Shown: positions 8,197 to 39,791 of the stretch, in pieces
Numbering within the stretch: position 1 is the stretch's first letter
How the letters are laid out: each line of letters begins with the position of its first letter
Virus record (IMG/VR): IMGVR_UViG_3300030451_003374
Location: 68,947 to 132,946 of that record
Source of the DNA: a virus
Length of the DNA: 64,000 nucleotides
Reading direction: 5' to 3' (one strand)
Position numbers and translations under genes: made by a program
Notes under the pieces: model-generated
What the model was told of the DNA's origin: nothing
Seen by the model: only the letters and a program-made list of their open reading frames with translations
Database searches by the model: none

Positions 8197-9326
8197 TTGC
8201 TACAGTTACCATAAGACAGATACTTCTTACCAGTTATATCATGCTCTGCATCAACAGGGTACATGTCCTTAGTAATCTGTGACATGATCCAGTTGTATGT
8301 CTTACTCATTCCCTCTTCAAGTGTTGTACTATAATCCCAACCTAACTTCTCTCTGATAAGATCGTTGTTAGAGTTTCTACCTCTTACACCTGTGTGTGGT
8401 ACATCAATATGATCCTTACCAATTTCTTTCTTGGCAACTTTAGCAGCAGTATCTACTAACTGATCAATGGTTACCATCTCTTCTGACCCTATGTTTATGG
8501 GAGCAGTCCACGTTCCTTCCATGAGTCTACGTGTTGCTTCAATACATTCATCGATGAAGAGGAAGCTTCTTGTTTGAAGTCCATCTCCCCATACTTCAAT
8601 TGAGTCTCCACTGGTAGCGTACGCCACTTTTCTACAGATAGCTGCGGGAGCTTTTTCTCTTCCACCGTACCAAGTTCCTTCTGGTCCGTAGATGTTATGA
8701 TACCTCGCAATCCTAACATCGAAATTATGATTACGACTGTAAGCGAGATATAACCTCTCGCTGAATAATTTTTCCCATCCATATTCAGAATCAGGTGCAG
8801 CAGGGTAAGCGGAATCCTCACGACAATCAGGATTATCTGGATCAAGTTGGTTGTACTCAGGGTACATACAGGCAGAACTTGAATAGAATATTTTAGTTTT
8901 ACCCACTACGTCAGGTACAGGTTGTAATAGACGTGGGTAACTTTCGTTCATCTCCTTTTGACATGATAGGAGATTTATGTTAATAAGAGCAGAGTTATGC
9001 ATCAAGTCAGCATCATGCTCACCAGTAAAGATGTAACCAGCACCACCCATGTCGGCAGCAAACTGATAGATCTCATCGAATGGTTCCTCATACTGGAAGG
9101 GGACACTAGCATAGAAATTTCCAGTCTCTCCTCTAAAATGAATGACTCTTCTCATGAAGTCTCTGTCTGTGAGATCTCCTGTGATAAACTCATTGGCAGC
9201 AGTATCAGAGAAGTCAGGGTGTTTGAGGTCAACACCTCTTACCCAATAACCTTCGCTTATCAATCTCTTTACCATATGTGAACCGATGAACCCACCGGCA
9301 CCAAGCACTAATGCTCTCTTTTTCAT
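8193..9326 (-). CDS. GDP-mannose 3,5-epimerase-like NAD-dependent epimerase
   Basis: GAGGFIG, AADMGGAGYI, SSSACMYPE, YGWEK, REKAPAAICRK, WGDGLQTRSF, GVRGRNS; start moved to ATG 9326 (ATGA coupling). Confidence 0.85.
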   Translation of the reverse strand: MKKRALVLGAGGFIGSHMVKRLISEGYWVRGVDLKHPDFSDTAANEFITGDLTDRDFMRRVIHFRGETGNFYASVPFQYEEPFDEIYQFAADMGGAGYIFTGEHDADLMHNSALININLLSCQKEMNESYPRLLQPVPDVVGKTKIFYSSSACMYPEYNQLDPDNPDCREDSAYPAAPDSEYGWEKLFSERLYLAYSRNHNFDVRIARYHNIYGPEGTWYGGREKAPAAICRKVAYATSGDSIEVWGDGLQTRSFLFIDECIEATRRLMEGTWTAPINIGSEEMVTIDQLVDTAAKVAKKEIGKDHIDVPHTGVRGRNSNNDLIREKLGWDYSTTLEEGMSKTYNWIMSQITKDMYPVDAEHDITGKKYLSYGNCSK

Positions 9327-10627
9327 TTGTTTTCTTTGATATATTTTATTATAACATGATCTATGTAGTCTAGCATGTCCACCGTAATAACTGGTGAACA
9401 CCCTATAAAGAACACGTTGTCTAGAACTTCTGAAGCTCTGGGATAGTTTGATGCAGGTTCGATATGCCTATAAGCAGGATGCATAAGAATATTACCAGCA
9501 AAATAATTCCTCGTCTGGATTCCATGATCTTCTAGATACTTTACAAGGTGGTGTTTACCGTCCTTATATATTATCGGAACTCCAAACCAAGAGGTCTCAG
9601 CATGTTCTTTCTCTTCAACAACCCTGCAACCAGGAATTTGGTTGAAGACCTGAGTGAGTGCTCCTTTATTCATACGACGGACACAATGTATCTCTGTCTG
9701 CTTCTCCAACTGCACAAGTCCAATAGACCCTTGCAGATCGGCAGGCTTGAGGTTGTATCCTTGGACGCCAAAGACATACTTATGATCGACATCTTGGTCG
9801 TACCCTTCCAACCAGCGATCAAATCTCTTTCCACAGACACCGTTGGGCAATTTATTTTGGGCACCTACACAGTAACATCCACGACCCCACCAAGCAAACG
9901 ATCTGGCGATCTGAACTATCTCCTCGATATTAGAGGAGATCATTCCACCTTCAATCGTGCAGATATGATGTGCTGGATAGAAAGAACAAGACGCTGCGAC
10001 GGCTTTTTTAGTCAGCAACTCACCTCTCCACTTGCTACCCAAGGAGTCACAGTTGTCAGCGATGTAATGCAATCTGTTCCTATCAAGAATCTTAAAAAAC
10101 TGATCGAAGTCATAGGGATTACCAAGAACAGGTGAAGAGAAAACAGCAACAGTTCTAGGTGTAAGTTTATCTTCTATCTGTTGTAGGTTCCAATTCAAAT
10201 CTTCCATGTCTATGTCTACAAAGACAGGTTTCAATCCATTCTGAATGATAGGGTTGATAGTAGTAGGGAAACCACATGCACATACTATTATTTCATCTCC
10301 ATCATGCCAATCAAAATATTTTTTCAACGCAGCAATCATCACTAGGTTAGCAGACGAACCACTGTTGACCATGACAGAGTGCTTGAAGTCAAACTTCTTA
10401 GAGAATGCACGTTCAAACTTGTTGACATTCTCTCCTGCTGGCAACCACTTACCACCTAGTAGTGTTGTAATAGCAGCAGTAACTTCTCTATTGTCCCAGT
10501 AAGGACCTGAGTAATAAATGGGATCGCCTGGTTTCCAATTCTTGTTTGGAAGATAAGGCATGATATCATATCCACCTTTCTCAAGACTGAATATGAAGTT
10601 GTCGACCTGTTCTCCTAGGTTATACAT
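9323..10627 (-). CDS. rfbH: RfbH/E1-type PMP- and [2Fe-2S]-dependent NDP-4-keto-6-deoxyhexose 3-dehydrase (DegT family)
   Basis: VNSGSSANL; SFYPAHHI with His at the usual PLP-Lys position; WGRGCYC...CGKRF Cys cluster; GYNLKP; TRNYFAGN. Confidence 0.85.
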   Translation of the reverse strand: MYNLGEQVDNFIFSLEKGGYDIMPYLPNKNWKPGDPIYYSGPYWDNREVTAAITTLLGGKWLPAGENVNKFERAFSKKFDFKHSVMVNSGSSANLVMIAALKKYFDWHDGDEIIVCACGFPTTINPIIQNGLKPVFVDIDMEDLNWNLQQIEDKLTPRTVAVFSSPVLGNPYDFDQFFKILDRNRLHYIADNCDSLGSKWRGELLTKKAVAASCSFYPAHHICTIEGGMISSNIEEIVQIARSFAWWGRGCYCVGAQNKLPNGVCGKRFDRWLEGYDQDVDHKYVFGVQGYNLKPADLQGSIGLVQLEKQTEIHCVRRMNKGALTQVFNQIPGCRVVEEKEHAETSWFGVPIIYKDGKHHLVKYLEDHGIQTRNYFAGNILMHPAYRHIEPASNYPRASEVLDNVFFIGCSPVITVDMLDYIDHVIIKYIKENK

Positions 10628-11433
10628 AAATCTTTGACAATAAATTCATTGGTAATGTGCTGTGCAAAACCTAACTTCCTCAACTTAGATGTATCTAACC
10701 AGAAGTGTTGTGTCTGCACGTTGTTATGGAACTCTGGTGGATCAATGTTTATAATCTCACCACGAGATCTTGTGAAGTGTTTAGCGAGTTCTACAATCTC
10801 ACTAACCTTAGTGGGTTGTCCTGACCCTATGTTGTAGATTTCATTCAACTCACCCTTGTCCATAACAAGTTTCATTGCTCTACATACATCCTTGACATGC
10901 ATTATATCACGACAATGAGATCCATTATCATATACTTTGATATCACGATCTTGTTTCAATTCATTTACCATCCATTGGATAGCATTCTTTTTCCTACTGG
11001 CATTAGTATCTCCTTCACCCATGACATTACATAGTCTCAGGATTCTATACTTCATCCCCGTCGTTTGAGCGAAAGAAATGATAAGATCTTCTGCACACTT
11101 CTTGGTAATAGAATAAAATCCTGTTGGTTTGCAATCCGATACTTCTGTGGCGGGAAGTGCTCCCCCTTTTCCATAGACAAACCATGAGGAAACGAAGTTG
11201 AATGTGATGTCTTCTGATCTACAGAAGTCGAGTGTTTCACAAAGGACTCGAAGATTTGTTTCGACATCCAAAGTGATCTGATCATGTACATTGTAGTTGT
11301 GTGTGGTTGAGATCATGTACAGGATGTCATTGTGCCTTGGCACTCTATCATCTCTCTCCTGTACTTCAACCTGTTCCTTGTATAGGTTTTTGAAATGCTT
11401 ACCTATGAAACCGTGACCGTAAAGTGAAATCAT
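10615..11433 (-). CDS. NAD-dependent epimerase/reductase (extended SDR)
   Basis: GHGFIG, FVSSWFVYG, YSITK (YxxxK), RLCNVMG, YNIGSG. Confidence 0.85.
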   Translation of the reverse strand: MISLYGHGFIGKHFKNLYKEQVEVQERDDRVPRHNDILYMISTTHNYNVHDQITLDVETNLRVLCETLDFCRSEDITFNFVSSWFVYGKGGALPATEVSDCKPTGFYSITKKCAEDLIISFAQTTGMKYRILRLCNVMGEGDTNASRKKNAIQWMVNELKQDRDIKVYDNGSHCRDIMHVKDVCRAMKLVMDKGELNEIYNIGSGQPTKVSEIVELAKHFTRSRGEIINIDPPEFHNNVQTQHFWLDTSKLRKLGFAQHITNEFIVKDLCIT

Positions 11434-34240: not shown

Positions 34241-35027
34241 TTAATTTAATACCCTCCTTAGTTAGTCCTCGACCTTTGGGTCGAATATCCACATAGGTCT
34301 TTGATGTGACCTCTCTTACAAGTGTAGCATCTATTCTACGTAGATACTTATCAGTCAATATAAAGTTAGCAGTCTTGTCATTATTGACGCCAAAAGCAAT
34401 TCTACCTGTCAATGCTTCCCTGACTAACTCCTCCTTGAATGATTGAAATACTTTTGATCCTTCTGGCATTTTTCTTGACCCTAGTATATCTTGCAGTGTC
34501 TCATTTATACCACCCTCCTTCTTTGCTTCTCTCATAAGTCTATCCATTATAGGTTTCTCTTGTCTTTTAGGTCCGTCAAATACTTCTGATAGTTCTGTTA
34601 GCACTGAGGCAACTTTCTTTACTTGCAACCCACCAAGACCCCCACTAAAAGATACTTTTGTTAGTACGTCATTCAATACCTTTACAGAACTCTCTATACC
34701 AGCAGAAGATAATTGGAATCTACCTCCATATTTTAGAGAGCATCTATGTTTGACACCATTCTTTCTGAATATGATATCTGTTTTTGGTTCAGGTCTTTGT
34801 CCACCCATCAATATAAAAGAGTCATAGAATACGTCATTACCTCTAATAGTATTTCTACTGCCACCTATACTATCCACCATTCTATCTGCTGCATTTTGTA
34901 TAGCAGCTTCTATAGGTTTACCATTGAAGAATGCCAGCATGGCTTGCTTAGTAAGACTAGGATTTTTTATCCTACTATAAGCAGATTTCATTACTGCAAA
35001 TTCAAATTGTTTACCTCTGTCTATCAT
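34206..35027 (-). CDS. Putative restriction-endonuclease-fold nuclease
   Basis: GKQFE helix, PKTDI...SLK. Confidence 0.45.
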   Translation of the reverse strand: MIDRGKQFEFAVMKSAYSRIKNPSLTKQAMLAFFNGKPIEAAIQNAADRMVDSIGGSRNTIRGNDVFYDSFILMGGQRPEPKTDIIFRKNGVKHRCSLKYGGRFQLSSAGIESSVKVLNDVLTKVSFSGGLGGLQVKKVASVLTELSEVFDGPKRQEKPIMDRLMREAKKEGGINETLQDILGSRKMPEGSKVFQSFKEELVREALTGRIAFGVNNDKTANFILTDKYLRRIDATLVREVTSKTYVDIRPKGRGLTKEGIKLNEAVVRIESID

Positions 35028-36229
35028 TAGTACATGTTTTTTCTTTCATCTCTAGAGAACCCCTTTACTTCTGGAGTATTTGCTCCAAAGGTTTTCTTTA
35101 TCACTCTTATATATTCGTCATTCAATTCAAGTCCAGTGACCTGATCTTCAAAATTGAATCCTCCTTGTACCCTACGCCTATTAGATGATGGGGTCTTTAG
35201 TTTATGATCTCTATAAAACTTATCACCATTCTGCTCGTATATAAACTGTTTCAATGGCATCTTATACTCAGGTATTTCTTGCCAACTGTTTATATAGTCC
35301 TGATTTGTGACCGCCCACCTCTGAAAGTTAGGTGTATCAAAGAAGTGAAACGCATTATTGAGTGGTGGATAAGGTGCTATATTATATTGTTCATGACATC
35401 TGACCTGACAGTACTGATACTTGATCATGAAACACCATGCCCAAGTCCATTGCTTTAGACTAACATCTTTCTTGTTCAGAACACACATCAATGACTGATG
35501 GCATATTTCTGCCACCCAATCAGGAATTACCTTATTGAAATGACCATTTCTAACTTCTTGTGGGTATAAAAATACTCTTGCTGAACCCATTATATTGTCT
35601 CCTATCTCACCTGTGACAAATAAATTGTTAGTATCTTTTACGTATGGAATCAGAGGAGTTCTAAGAGCAAATCTTTCGTTGACGTATCCATGATTGATAG
35701 CAGTTATGTTACTATACTTACCTGTCTCTAGATCATTCCACCCTGTTGTACACTCTTTCTTTGCTGAGACATCGTAGTGTACATTGATTGGTATATTTGT
35801 TCTAGCAAAAGCATATAGAGCAGTGGTGCTATCAATACCACCTGACCATAATAAGTTTATCTTTCTTCCATTAGAATTATCATTGATAACGTTGACAGCA
35901 TCCTCACACACATTATCAAATGACATATCAGTGTGAAGGTTGGTAGGTAGTGGTGATATTATTTTGTATGGGTGTTTGGGTACAATTTTACCTCTCCTAC
36001 ATACACATCTAGTCCTAAAATATCTGTTGAGTGCGTTCTCTTTGTTAGTAAAATTACCTTTATAATACCATCCCTTCCCCTCCTTGTTTTTCAGACCCCT
36101 AGGCATATATTCAGTGCTCCATTTATAATCATAAGGAGGTTCAAGACTACCATCTTCAGACCATGAATGATTGTTACGGTCTGGATGCATAGACTCTAAT
36201 ATATTTTCATCTAGTTCTTGATATCCCAC
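35027..36229 (-). CDS. PP-loop ATP pyrophosphatase, Asn-synthetase C-terminal-like, paralog A
   Basis: INLLWSGGIDSTT and FVTGEIGDNIMG. Confidence 0.7.
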   Translation of the reverse strand: MGYQELDENILESMHPDRNNHSWSEDGSLEPPYDYKWSTEYMPRGLKNKEGKGWYYKGNFTNKENALNRYFRTRCVCRRGKIVPKHPYKIISPLPTNLHTDMSFDNVCEDAVNVINDNSNGRKINLLWSGGIDSTTALYAFARTNIPINVHYDVSAKKECTTGWNDLETGKYSNITAINHGYVNERFALRTPLIPYVKDTNNLFVTGEIGDNIMGSARVFLYPQEVRNGHFNKVIPDWVAEICHQSLMCVLNKKDVSLKQWTWAWCFMIKYQYCQVRCHEQYNIAPYPPLNNAFHFFDTPNFQRWAVTNQDYINSWQEIPEYKMPLKQFIYEQNGDKFYRDHKLKTPSSNRRRVQGGFNFEDQVTGLELNDEYIRVIKKTFGANTPEVKGFSRDERKNMY

Positions 36230-37299
36230 TACATATTACCCCCAAAGACAGACTTCTGAAGTGCAAACCACTCCTCATTGTCATGCAAACCATCAAGATC
36301 ATTGTTATATAATCTCTTTCTATTAGATGATGGAAACTTTAGTTTGTTATCTCTATAATATTCATCACCATTCTGTTCATATATCCACTGTTTGAGTGGC
36401 ATCTTATACTCCTTTGGTTTCTGCCAAGAACTGTTCTCATCTTGATTAGTATGTCCATATCTATTCCAGTTAGGTGTATCAAAGAAGTGGAAGCAATTAT
36501 TATATGGAGCAAACGGTGCTACAGCACCATAGTATCTGATGCTACGGACTGCTGCTGTTTGATATTTGAACATATAACTTCCTGCCCACATCCATTGCTT
36601 TAGACTAGCACCTTCTTTGTTCAAGGCATAGTGCATAGTGTCATAAGTCAGTTCATCTATCCTCTCAGGTATACTCTCCCTGTAATCTCTGTCCCATTTG
36701 TCTGGTGGAAAAGCAAATATCTTACCTGTACCAAATATTTGATCACCAATCTCACCTGTTACAAATATATTGTCCTCGTTTATGTAAGGTTCTACTCCCT
36801 TCCTTACACTCATCCCTGCTTCATAGGGTGCACAGTCTTGAGTATTGTCATGGTGGTGCATGATAACATTCATATTGACATACTCACCTAGTTTACTGAA
36901 TATGAATGGTGCTTCCTTCTCTACCTGAGGGTCACAGTGTACATTTATGGTAAGACCTGTGTTGTGTAAGGCATAGAATACAGTAGTACTATCAATACCA
37001 CCAGACCACAAGAGATTTATCGTTCTACCGTCAGCATATTGGACACATAGATCTGCTGCATCTCTACAGCAATCATCTATAGTCATATCAGTGTGAAAAT
37101 TATTGTCTACGAAATCTGGTAGTGGTGATATAACTGTGTAATTTCTTTTTGTTGGTAATAATCCTGCTCTACATATACATCTCATGCCCATCCATCTGTT
37201 CAATTCATTCTCTTCTTTCAGAAAGAACATTTGATACCTAGGAGTATCAAAATACTTTGCACTAGAGAGATATTGAGATGGCCACTCAAGAAATTGCAT
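36229..37299 (-). CDS. PP-loop ATP pyrophosphatase, Asn-synthetase C-terminal-like, paralog B
   Basis: INLLWSGGIDSTT and FVTGEIGDQIFG; start moved to ATG 37299 because the TTG start lies in the terminator U-tract. Confidence 0.7.
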   Translation of the reverse strand: MQFLEWPSQYLSSAKYFDTPRYQMFFLKEENELNRWMGMRCICRAGLLPTKRNYTVISPLPDFVDNNFHTDMTIDDCCRDAADLCVQYADGRTINLLWSGGIDSTTVFYALHNTGLTINVHCDPQVEKEAPFIFSKLGEYVNMNVIMHHHDNTQDCAPYEAGMSVRKGVEPYINEDNIFVTGEIGDQIFGTGKIFAFPPDKWDRDYRESIPERIDELTYDTMHYALNKEGASLKQWMWAGSYMFKYQTAAVRSIRYYGAVAPFAPYNNCFHFFDTPNWNRYGHTNQDENSSWQKPKEYKMPLKQWIYEQNGDEYYRDNKLKFPSSNRKRLYNNDLDGLHDNEEWFALQKSVFGGNM

Positions 37300-37330
37300 T
37301 ATAAAAGGATCCCATGTAGTATATAGACAC

Positions 37331-37356
37331 AAAAAAAGGGAGTCCGAAGACTCCCC
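37331..37356 (-). terminator. Rho-independent terminator with cUUCGg tetraloop
   Basis: Minus strand GGGAGTC-TTCG-GACTCCC-TTTTTTT downstream of the dctP-like gene. Confidence 0.9.
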
Positions 37357-37378
37357 ATAATTCCATGCACTGTGGAAT

Positions 37379-38338
37379 TTACTTTGTTTCTTTTATAGAA
37401 TCCACAAGTCCCTCTGGGAACATGTGTGCATACTTGTCATAGATGTATGCTGTCTTTTCTTTGAATCTAGACTTCTCTTCGTCGCTCATAGTGACAACGT
37501 TGATGTTCTCATCGGCACATGCAGACTTGACTAAGTCAATGTCTTCCACAGACCAAACTCTTTCTGCTCTAGCAGCATCGAATGATGCGTCTTGGATCTT
37601 ATCTTGAAGATCTTTGTCTAAAGAGTTCCAGAACCCTTCACTTACAATGATTGATGTAAGGAATAGACTGTGTGATGTGTCGTTGATTGTATTCATACAC
37701 TCATTCTGCTTCAATCCAAAGAAGCGAGGGTATGTTGACTCTCCACCAACGATAATTCCAGACTGAACTCCTTCGTTGATCTGCTCTAATTCGATTGGAA
37801 CTGTCTTAGCACCAACGCATTCTAGAGTTTCGATAGCGATAGGAGATTTGTTACAACGTAACTCAAGTCCTTCAAAGTCTTCGATCTTATGTATTTCTGC
37901 GTTTGCAGGGATGTTTCTGTATCCGCCTGAGTATGTGAACGCTAAACCTTTTACTCCGCCCTTTTCACCTTTAGCAGGATCTGCTAAACCATCAAGTAGT
38001 GACTTACCAATAGGACCTTCAAAGACATGACTTGCGTGATCATGATCACGGAACAAGAATGGCATATCTAATGCCCAGAAATCTTTGTTGTGCTTACGAC
38101 CTAATGTTGAGGTATACATCTGGGAGACCTCAATCTTCCCTTCTGCCATTAGTTCGAGTAAGTCGTGCTTAGTAATTGACTCACCGTTATTATACTTCTC
38201 AGCGTACTCAGAGAGTGTGAGAATTTCGATGTTTAAAGCACCTGGTGCGATTGCTTCCATAGATGCCTTGAACTTTCTCGCAGCTCTTAGAAACAATTCA
38301 ATTGGTTCGTGTGCTAGAACCCATCTAATTGTTTTCAT
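37379..38338 (-). CDS. TRAP-type substrate-binding protein (DctP-like) without signal peptide
   Basis: LDMPFLFRDHDHA, DFEGLELR with the conserved Arg, HSLFLTSIIVSEGFWNSLDKDLQDKI; no hydrophobic N-terminus; SD AAGGGG. Confidence 0.85.
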   Translation of the reverse strand: MKTIRWVLAHEPIELFLRAARKFKASMEAIAPGALNIEILTLSEYAEKYNNGESITKHDLLELMAEGKIEVSQMYTSTLGRKHNKDFWALDMPFLFRDHDHASHVFEGPIGKSLLDGLADPAKGEKGGVKGLAFTYSGGYRNIPANAEIHKIEDFEGLELRCNKSPIAIETLECVGAKTVPIELEQINEGVQSGIIVGGESTYPRFFGLKQNECMNTINDTSHSLFLTSIIVSEGFWNSLDKDLQDKIQDASFDAARAERVWSVEDIDLVKSACADENINVVTMSDEEKSRFKEKTAYIYDKYAHMFPEGLVDSIKETK

Positions 38339-38370
38339 AAATTACCCCTTAGGAATAGTTTTACTAATAG

Positions 38371-38378
38371 TATTTATT
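38371..38378 (-). promoter_or_regulatory. T4-type late promoter (AATAAATA)
   Basis: 33 nt upstream of the dctP-like ATG. Confidence 0.55.
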
Positions 38379-38631
38379 AGATGTAAACTTTCTCTGTAGC
38401 AGAAGTTGTTCTACGCTGCCAGTCGTTTCTGTTCCAGAGACGCTCATGTAGAATATAAAGTGTGGAGTTTATGACAAGTGCCATAAGTCCGATTGTAAGA
38501 CCTTTCCAAGGATCACCCGAAACGATCCAACCGATTACACTGTTAGTAACCATCATCCAGCTACGCCATGTAACTGCTTTAGTAATGGTGCGAGGAAAAC
38601 GCTCGAACCACTTAGGATTAACAAAAGACAT
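38377..38631 (-). CDS. DUF2061-like small membrane protein
   Basis: RTITKAVTWR...ILHERLWNR pattern with two hydrophobic segments. Confidence 0.75.
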   Translation of the reverse strand: MSFVNPKWFERFPRTITKAVTWRSWMMVTNSVIGWIVSGDPWKGLTIGLMALVINSTLYILHERLWNRNDWQRRTTSATEKVYI

Positions 38632-38701
38632 AATGTTTTTTGATTATAAAGTTGTTGAACGACGATCTTTTTTGAGACAGGCAGCATCACTCCTCGTACG
38701 T

Positions 38702-39397
38702 TTATATATAAACCTTCCAGTGTTTCACTATTGGATGTTCTGATTCACTCAACTCATGATTCTTTGGTCTCTGATGTAGGAGTGCTATTGCTTTGTTCTG
38801 TCTCAAAATAAAACTATTCAATTGATTTGGTTTCTCTCCATCCCTGTAGGAATATATGCAGTGCGGTAGTTGTTCTCTCTTGATTTTTTCGTTGTGATAA
38901 AAATCATCCGTTCCTGCATATTTAGACACATAATGTTTTGCGTTTTGCATAAAATACTCATAGATTGACGTAGCGTCTTTCCAAACTATAACACTTGAGT
39001 TGAATAAACTCTTGTGTGGGTACTTCATTTTGAAGGGAACTCCCTTCCATGTACTGTATACTAATGCAAAGTTACTATCAAAGTCAAGTACTTGTGAGAT
39101 ATTTCCGTGAATGATAACATCTAGGTCAAAAAAGATCTTTCTGCTATACTGTTCTAACTCAGGACGAACGAAGAGTACTATCTTCCACCACGCTGCCCAC
39201 CAGTTATCCCATGATTGATACTCACTAGCGTCTATCTCTACAACATTTACCTTAGGATCAATCCCCTCTGGATTATCCGTAAAGCAATAAAAATCTGCAT
39301 CAGACTGGCGACTTATCATACCATAAAGATTATTCACATATGAATGGTCAAATTTGTCGCCTATCTTAAGACAAGTTATACAATAACTAGAGGTCAC
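38702..39397 (-). CDS. Nucleotide-diphospho-sugar transferase (GT-A fold)
   Basis: CLKIGDKF..YVN, CFTD, WWKIVLF, FFDLDVII DxD, FNSSVIVW; probable GTG start 39397 after AGGAAG. Confidence 0.75.
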   Translation of the reverse strand: MTSSYCITCLKIGDKFDHSYVNNLYGMISRQSDADFYCFTDNPEGIDPKVNVVEIDASEYQSWDNWWAAWWKIVLFVRPELEQYSRKIFFDLDVIIHGNISQVLDFDSNFALVYSTWKGVPFKMKYPHKSLFNSSVIVWKDATSIYEYFMQNAKHYVSKYAGTDDFYHNEKIKREQLPHCIYSYRDGEKPNQLNSFILRQNKAIALLHQRPKNHELSESEHPIVKHWKVYI

Positions 39398-39791
39398 CTT
39401 CCTTTCTGTTCTCCGAATAGTACTCTTGGAACATACCGTTAGGGTATCTCTTAGATAACTTATCAATATTCATGTCAGTTATCTCCTCAAGAGGTACATC
39501 TAATGCCATGCAGCACTGTGCAACATACCACATGATATCTCCTAGTTCTATCTTGAGATGATGTATATTTGCCTCATCCCATGGTTTGCCTTGGAAGATC
39601 ATCTTCTTTACTATCTCTAAAAACTCTCCACCTTCAGAACATACACCTACTGCTCCTGTCAAAAGACGATGCATTTCAGTGTTCTGCTCCTTCAGGTCTT
39701 GTATACGGTTCATGAATGCTACAGCATCTTTAGATTCGTCACTCGTAACTTGATTTACGAAACGAACATACTTATCAAAATTTGAAGTCAT
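39387..39791 (-). CDS. mazG: MazG-like nucleotide pyrophosphohydrolase
   Basis: EGGEFLEIVKK, ELGDIMWY, NIDKLSKRYP. Confidence 0.9.
   Translation of the reverse strand: MTSNFDKYVRFVNQVTSDESKDAVAFMNRIQDLKEQNTEMHRLLTGAVGVCSEGGEFLEIVKKMIFQGKPWDEANIHHLKIELGDIMWYVAQCCMALDVPLEEITDMNIDKLSKRYPNGMFQEYYSENRKEGDL

Follow-up and report, generated by a model that had tools for sequence, protein, structure and literature searches.

The 64,000-nucleotide window analysed here (positions 68,947 to 132,946 of the IMG/VR virus record IMGVR_UViG_3300030451_003374) encodes a member of the DctP family, the solute-binding proteins of tripartite ATP-independent periplasmic (TRAP) transporters, that carries no export signal. 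This protein, hereafter the binder, had been described in a first-pass annotation as a lone gene; we find it to be the middle gene of a conserved cassette in which it lies between a small DUF2061 membrane protein and AsnB-like PP-loop ligases. Most likely, the binder works inside the infected cell in a late pathway and not in nutrient uptake. More specifically, we give roughly an even chance to the proposal that it is a cytoplasmic acid binder serving an AsnB-like amide-ligase pathway late in infection. The genes of the cassette are as follows.

37379-38338, minus strand: the binder, a signal-less DctP-family protein of 319 aa with a TRAP solute-binding fold (open reading frame (ORF), Pfam, AlphaFold2 (AF2), Foldseek, dN/dS)
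36229-37299, minus strand: AsnB-like PP-loop ATP pyrophosphatase A, 356 aa from the ATG at 37299 (SGGIDS motif; AF2 model; VIA)
35027-36229, minus strand: AsnB-like PP-loop paralogue B, 400 aa, its start overlapping the stop of A (SGGIDS; 44-45% identical to A)
38377-38631, minus strand: DUF2061 small membrane protein, 84 aa (Pfam PF09834, E 2.3e-13)

The first-pass annotation, made from the sequence alone, had described a full-length TRAP fold with a carboxylate-binding arginine, and profile and structure comparisons agree. The Pfam DctP profile PF03480 matches the binder with an E value of 1.6e-40 and 139.7 bits (cut-off 23.4), over residues 18-304 and profile positions 13-284 of 286, and NF037995 (TRAP_S1) matches with 101 bits, above its cut-off of 50; the binder stays below the cut-off of the dctP subfamily TIGR00787 (115.1 against 175.05 bits). 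The AF2 model, built on 50 relatives, has a mean predicted local distance difference test (pLDDT) score of 96.6 and shows, over the full length, two alpha/beta lobes and a long spanning helix (residues 242-276). In a Foldseek search with this model the top PDB matches were all TRAP solute-binding proteins (template-modelling (TM) score 0.84-0.89, 18-24% identity), among them IseP (8t9t), 4p47, the galacturonate binder 4n8y, and SiaP. HMMER aligns R161 of the binder, in the motif GLELR, with the arginine of GLKIR in 4n8y, and R161 is invariant throughout the signal-less clade described below except in two long-branch rows; we regard it as a putative carboxylate clamp. With the fold and this arginine kept, the binder would still bind a small organic acid. 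A metal site was also considered on account of conserved His and Glu residues and was rejected, as H101 and H223 align with His residues of 4n8y and most residues of this kind are common to exported relatives.

The same protein starts directly at its mature fold, without a signal peptide. Its ORF opens with MKTIRWVLAHEP, at the earliest ATG, GTG, or TTG past an in-frame stop, which leaves no room in this frame for a longer form with a signal. Within the first 60 residues, 15-residue Kyte-Doolittle hydropathy peaks at 1.32; the N-terminus has no hydrophobic leader and no lipobox, and the first 40 residues hold neither a Cys nor a twin-Arg motif. A capsid-targeting reading of the N-terminal MKTIRWVLAHE was rejected: this stretch forms the fold's conserved first strand, and exported cellular forms have it too. 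Transporter partners are likewise missing: the first-pass annotation had reported no dctQ or dctM genes in the window, and a search for DctQ, DctM, and TAXI genes (PF04290, PF06808, PF16868) widened to the whole 132,946-base record, which is ~70% complete and of which the window forms the last 64 kb, returned no match. The earlier proposal of a repurposed binding protein holds to this extent, that the binder is best described as a solute-binding-protein derivative that is neither exported nor TRAP-dependent.

Relatives of the binder are numerous. More than 2,000 proteins of similar length occur in a large protein collection, at least 437 viral contigs encode one, and bacterial assemblies contribute 60 loci, mostly from metagenome-assembled genomes of Bdellovibrionota and Elusimicrobia. 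Many of the cellular copies are extended at the N-terminus by 28-57 residues, which include a hydrophobic stretch resembling a signal. Every viral copy, together with some on large Bdellovibrionota contigs, begins a few residues ahead of the WVLAHEP strand, which is the position where mature exported relatives begin. A phylogeny of the signal-less phage proteins had been proposed as a check. When a maximum-likelihood tree is rooted with the most distant of the exported forms, the exported proteins are basal and paraphyletic, and the signal-less proteins fall into one derived clade of 37 rows (Shimodaira-Hasegawa-like approximate likelihood-ratio test (SH-aLRT) 98) that contains every viral copy bar one long-branch row; two seeming exceptions within the clade are over-long ORF calls.

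Putative pocket residues are common to exported and signal-less forms (H10, E11, Q73, Y75, H99, H101, Y136, R141, R161, E200, T202, R205, Q211, N212, H223, E259, and R260), and H58 and E183 are fixed in the signal-less clade only. Between the binder and close viral copies, the ratio of nonsynonymous to synonymous substitution rates (dN/dS) is 0.05-0.14, with mostly synonymous differences. Given the single derived clade, the shared pocket residues, and the low dN/dS, the export signal was lost once, and the putative binding site was retained under purifying selection. Close homologues of the binder are absent from GenBank phage records, where ten tblastn matches of 20-26% identity are mostly contaminant-like fragments; these records also hold no homologue of the AsnB-like protein, and the cassette is therefore known from uncultured phages only. 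BFVD contains only two fragmentary DctP/TeaA entries, both from uncultured phages, and literature searches on DctP or TRAP binders in phages and on signal-less TRAP binders found nothing relevant.

The cellular relatives show the signal-less form in metabolic gene settings. Signal-less copies sit on Bdellovibrionota contigs of 183-504 kb, in two settings. The first is a same-strand cluster with AMP-binding enzymes, a short-chain dehydrogenase, a beta-keto-acid cleavage enzyme (BKACE), a carrier protein, a 250-aa protein, and the ligase family (L002:271-10343, L042:6627-14849, L003:1515-10942). In the second, the signal-less gene lies directly 3' of a gene for a major facilitator superfamily (MFS) transporter. 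Both settings are metabolic and not virion-related. DctM was found in one of five Bdellovibrionota genomes searched, away from the binder locus, so the whole subfamily may be TRAP-independent. Other observations concern the surroundings of these genes. The cluster of L002 is followed by DUF1574 and MBOAT genes, a Dlt-like set; exported Bdellovibrionota forms (L011-L035) lie near an NMT1-type ATP-binding cassette (ABC) system of binder, permease, and ATPase, near AMP-binding enzymes, and near MBOAT, and others of this group near methylmalonyl-CoA mutase and MeaB.

Other phage-encoded binders offer a contrast. On jumbo and other freshwater phage contigs (L120:9022-9951, L128, L133, L139; cluster 51), a TctC-like (tripartite tricarboxylate) binder that retains a classical signal peptide adjoins the signal-less DctP-like gene. 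On pelagimyophage-like contigs, a signal-bearing TAXI binder (PF16868) and a DctM-like permease (PF06808, E 1.9e-56) lie ~3 kb from the cassette, on the opposite strand and between the large-terminase and tail-sheath genes (L098:14199-16461; also L086, L088, L091, L096, L100); this pair is a predicted phage-borne TRAP-TAXI transporter. Phages thus keep signals on binders destined for export, which marks the signal loss in the DctP-like protein as specific.

Turning to the neighbours of the binder, ORFs were called in 140 loci and the proteins clustered. The commonest neighbour is a protein of 340-440 aa with an SGGIDS PP-loop, of which the window holds two tandem copies. Linkage was counted over the 70 viral copies flanked by two or more genes on both sides and compared with 26 exported cellular copies. 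In 52 of the 70, a gene of the AsnB-like family is at most three genes away from the binder, and the figure rises to 64/70 when any other PP-loop-superfamily gene is admitted; DUF2061 is directly 5' of the binder in 47/70. None of the 26 exported cellular copies has a PP-loop ligase or DUF2061 neighbour. The linkage of binder and ligase spans several settings: beside gp41 in cyanophage-like contigs, between terminase genes in pelagimyophage-like contigs, and on jumbo-phage contigs. In the pelagimyophage-like contigs the cassette falls between the small- and large-terminase genes, near neck and sheath genes, and the stop of the binder overlaps the start of the ligase, an arrangement suggesting that the two are translationally coupled in these relatives.

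The neighbouring enzymes can be assigned to the AsnB class from their motif and fold. The S, G, G, D, and S of the PP-loop are invariant in a 39-row ligase alignment, and SGGIDS is present in nearly all listed members. The model of ligase A (pLDDT 87) gives VIA Z scores of 12-14 to the synthetase domains of AsnB, beta-lactam synthetase, TsnB9, and carbapenam synthetase (13.9 to 1ct9 and 13.4 to 1jgt), with GMP and NAD synthetases lower at ~10. The ligases have no family match to a glutaminase (class II N-terminal nucleophile, Ntn) domain; only ~95 residues precede the PP-loop, and the structural alignment covers the synthetase domain only. Pfam and NCBIfam gave no match above cut-off for the AsnB-like ligase, and a sequence-profile search of the family against PDB returned motif-level matches to the PP-loop only. 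AsnB-class enzymes adenylate a carboxylate and form an amide, and this chemistry matches that of a carboxylate binder. Predictions of a complex between the binder and AsnB-like A gave 0.74, 0.00, and 0.00 in three runs and speak neither for nor against binding.

The binder gene is bounded by the following signals.

38371-38378, minus strand: T4-type late-promoter-like box AATAAATA, 33 nt 5' of the binder ATG (motif match only)
38345-38350, minus strand: Shine-Dalgarno-like AAGGGG, 6 nt 5' of the binder ATG (read from sequence)
37330-37356, minus strand: intrinsic terminator with an 8-bp stem, GGGGAGUC-UUCG-GACUCCCU, followed by U7 (fold energy)

The late box, the Shine-Dalgarno-like sequence, and the UUCG-loop terminator had all been named in the first-pass annotation and are present at the gene. 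The terminator folds with -19.4 kcal/mol over a 61-nt context (z = -2.9). A TTG at 37332 of AsnB-like A overlaps its tail, and the ATG at 37299, opening MQFLEWPS, is the likely start of that ligase; the 79-nt spacer left by this ATG contains no exact late box, so that ligase expression may depend on read-through or another signal. Within the window, nine of ten copies of ATAAATA lie on the coding strand, several at a similar distance from start codons, and among 60 distinct related flanks, 46 carry the motif 5' of the binder, and a terminator recurs 3' of the gene in 27 of them. The further claim that the binder forms its own transcription unit stands in part. It does possess its own terminator and its own late box, which overlaps the DUF2061 stop codon; however, contigs from marine RNA libraries (four runs, three studies) cover 37360-38696, comprising the binder and DUF2061, and span the junction between them. 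The unit is therefore probably bicistronic, comprising DUF2061 and the binder, and not the binder alone. In two studies these contigs stop at 37360 and 37368, beside the terminator and with no loose end, a weak hint of a 3' end near 37360-37368. The AsnB-like pair, the glycosyltransferase-like gene described below, and gp41 have little or no contig cover in the four runs, which is not evidence of silence, and contig depth in these libraries cannot rank genes.

The virus itself, a marine phage, is a T4-like cyanomyovirus, judging from its gp41, ~73% identical to gp41 of P-SSM2 and S-PRM1, and from a psbA/psbD-type photosystem II reaction-centre gene at 63457-64353 of the record, outside the window. 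The latter gene also supports a cyanobacterial host.

Together, these observations suggest the following mechanism. The binder would be a soluble, cytoplasmic descendant of an exported TRAP solute-binding protein, taken out of transport. Its closed two-lobe fold and clamping arginine would allow it to go on binding a small organic acid. It would be made late, probably with DUF2061 and probably abundantly, and would partner the adjacent AsnB-like PP-loop ligases, which would adenylate a carboxylate and form an amide. Most likely, the binder would serve this ligase pathway in the infected cyanobacterium by capturing or buffering its acid substrate, by passing that substrate on, or by holding the product. 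Among the roles offered in the first-pass annotation, that of a substrate carrier is the best fit, a preference that draws on synteny with the AsnB-like ligases and on the translational coupling seen in relatives.

Several points weigh against a joint role for binder and ligases. In this window a strong terminator lies between them. A PP-loop neighbour is lacking in six of the 70 viral copies; close kinship among many of the viral loci means that the linkage counts overstate the number of independent cases; and the phage record is only ~70% complete. In addition, none of the 57 viral loci that carry distant ligase homologues has a DctP-like gene within 6 kb, which implies that the ligase does not need the binder, and related contigs vary in the presence or absence of the DUF2061 and binder pair just 5' of the ligase. 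The dependence between binder and ligase runs one way.

The alternative that survives best is a stand-alone sponge: an abundant cytoplasmic protein that sequesters a carboxylate metabolite or signal independently of the ligases and so redirects metabolism or blunts a host response. The gene's own late box and terminator, the RNA-library contigs that cover it in four runs, the occurrence of the ligase family without a binder, and the six viral copies without a PP-loop neighbour would all suit such a protein. Linkage in 64/70 copies and the translational coupling in relatives favour a joint function with the ligase instead, and we judge a sponge unlikely. The sequestration of an immune signal, which the first-pass annotation had offered as an option, is not supported: early expression would be anticipated for a sponge of that type, but the promoter motif conserved here is late-type; there is no PADLOC match, PADLOC being a library of defence proteins; and the cellular homologues stand in metabolic operons.

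Two further alternatives seem improbable, and about equally so. One, proposed earlier in the form of a virion-attached sensor, is a virion-borne or lysis-released extracellular binder for an acidic sugar or organic acid near the next host, signal-less because particles assemble in the cytoplasm. A late-type promoter and a strong terminator are what structural genes have, and the position of the pelagimyophage-like cassette between terminase genes, close to neck and sheath genes, would fit as well. The signal-less homologues in metabolic clusters on large bacterial contigs, however, cannot be virion proteins; the consistent partners of the binder are a cytoplasmic enzyme and a membrane protein; and the binder has no capsid-targeting or tail-fibre features. 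No longer, fused forms were found at E <= 1e-20, and the consequent absence of fusions to structural domains is weak evidence in the same direction.

The other is a transport device, in which the binder docks from within the cytoplasm, either on DUF2061 or on a permease of host or phage, as a sink for imported acid or as the gate of an exporter. The adjacency of DUF2061 in 47/70 viral copies, the RNA contigs bridging both genes, the MFS transporter beside signal-less Bdellovibrionota copies, and the TAXI binder with its DctM-like permease ~3 kb away in related phages point this way. Against it, DUF2061 is, at 84 aa, too small for a permease, the TAXI system has an exported binder of its own, and the present record lacks DctQ, DctM, and TAXI genes; we also know of no solute-binding protein that acts on the cytoplasmic face of a membrane.

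Least probable of all is an enzyme evolved from a binding protein (as were cyclohexadienyl dehydratase, MqnA/MqnD, and THI5) that catalyses a step before or after the ligases: many polar residues are invariant (H10, E11, H58, H99, H101, E183, E185, E200, and H223), two of them, H58 and E183, fixed solely in the signal-less clade, but most are common to exported relatives, H101 and H223 align with His residues in the solved TRAP binder 4n8y, and the model has an ordinary closed binding-protein architecture.

Building on the preferred reading of an acid binder serving a ligase pathway, we tentatively propose that the DUF2061, binder, and AsnB-like cassette could be a widespread late pathway of ocean phages, with the TRAP-type binder as its cytoplasmic substrate-delivery or product-holding subunit. 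Such a pathway could make an undescribed amide, or amidate a lipid, polyamine, or macromolecule for particle maturation or envelope remodelling. In that case the binder would be the first TRAP-family binding protein paired with an enzyme and not with a transporter. If the binder is a cytoplasmic partner of an amide ligase, it would point to an as yet undescribed metabolite or modification that arises late when cyanophages infect, and annotating the gene in viral metagenomes as one for nutrient uptake would be wrong. The signal-less clade, large and mostly viral, occurs in hundreds of phage genomes from marine and fresh waters and is under strong purifying selection. New in this analysis are the exported Bdellovibrionota/Elusimicrobia stem group and the single signal loss, the one-way character of the dependence between binder and ligase, the contrast to phage binders that keep their signals, and the RNA-library contigs.

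Further features were noted around the cassette. One more gene lies 5' of DUF2061.

38702-39466, minus strand: glycosyltransferase-like gene (PHROG 1962 glycosyltransferase, E 2.2e-9)

It occurs close to the binder in 25 viral loci that share a single cyanophage-like context, and its membership of the cassette is uncertain. The DUF2061 protein has one clear hydrophobic window, with its peak near residue 45. DUF2061 genes are among those induced in the iron-limitation or Fur regulons of Caulobacter (PMC3751524), Shewanella (PMC12442407), and Vibrio parahaemolyticus (PMC12341060), which may point to a connection with metal or chelator handling. A 93-codon antisense ORF at 38462-38743 on the plus strand overlaps DUF2061 and is seen again in related contigs (cluster 18); most likely, it is the shadow of the conserved gene on the opposite strand.

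Among the remaining neighbour clusters searched against Pfam, NCBIfam, and PHROGs, cl35 had no match, cl94 had only a below-threshold NCBIfam match, and the sole library match of cl12 was PHROG 22045 (function not known). A second, very divergent DctP-like gene, signal-less and with 23% identity, occurs in a group of marine contigs (L110 at ~9000-11000; also L111-L113, L151, L152, L154), where the L110-type order is second binder, DUF2061, binder, and ligase. Distant ligase members adjoin a gene for a GP38-like tail-fibre adhesin in one contig group and a cupin gene in 14 other contigs (L196-L201, L181, L193, L204, L208; L159-L176); neither set has a DctP-like gene.

Compared with known systems, the binder resembles the DctP-family TRAP binders (8t9t, 4p47, 4n8y, SiaP) in its full-length two-lobe fold and conserved arginine. 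TRAP binding proteins are periplasmic parts of transporters; unlike them, the phage protein has no signal peptide, no DctQ or DctM in a ~70%-complete record, a late-type promoter, and a linkage to ligases, and the Asn of the usual E-N motif is replaced by Ser201. The exported DctP-like proteins of Bdellovibrionota and Elusimicrobia (L011-L058) are closer, with 25-50% identity and with the WVLAHEP strand and pocket residues in common; they form the phylogenetic stem of the signal-less clade and differ from the phage binder in their 28-57-residue extension and in their neighbours, namely ABC parts, AMP-binding enzymes, and MBOAT. With regard to immune-signal sponges of the Tad1, Tad2, and Acb2 type, for which a related sequence or fold and early expression would be looked for, the binder has the fold of a TRAP binding protein and a late-type promoter motif; the lack of a PADLOC match concerns defence proteins and not anti-defence proteins, which that library does not cover.

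On the enzyme side, the phage ligases share the SGGxDS PP-loop and the synthetase fold with the glutaminase-less AsnB family (beta-lactam and carbapenam synthetases, TsnB9, and lasso-peptide cyclases), at only 11-15% identity and, unlike these, with no N-terminal Ntn domain at all. To our knowledge, no member of that family has been reported to work with a binding-protein partner. Nor do we know of a described cytoplasmic derivative of the TRAP DctP family, and literature searches found none. Parallels exist in the LysR/LacI effector domains, THI5/NMT1, MqnA/MqnD, and HisG, in which, as proposed for the binder, a binding-protein fold is reused in the cell without export. Those cases have their origin in class I or II binding proteins of the ABC type; a cytoplasmic partner of amide ligases would be a new use of the TRAP fold.

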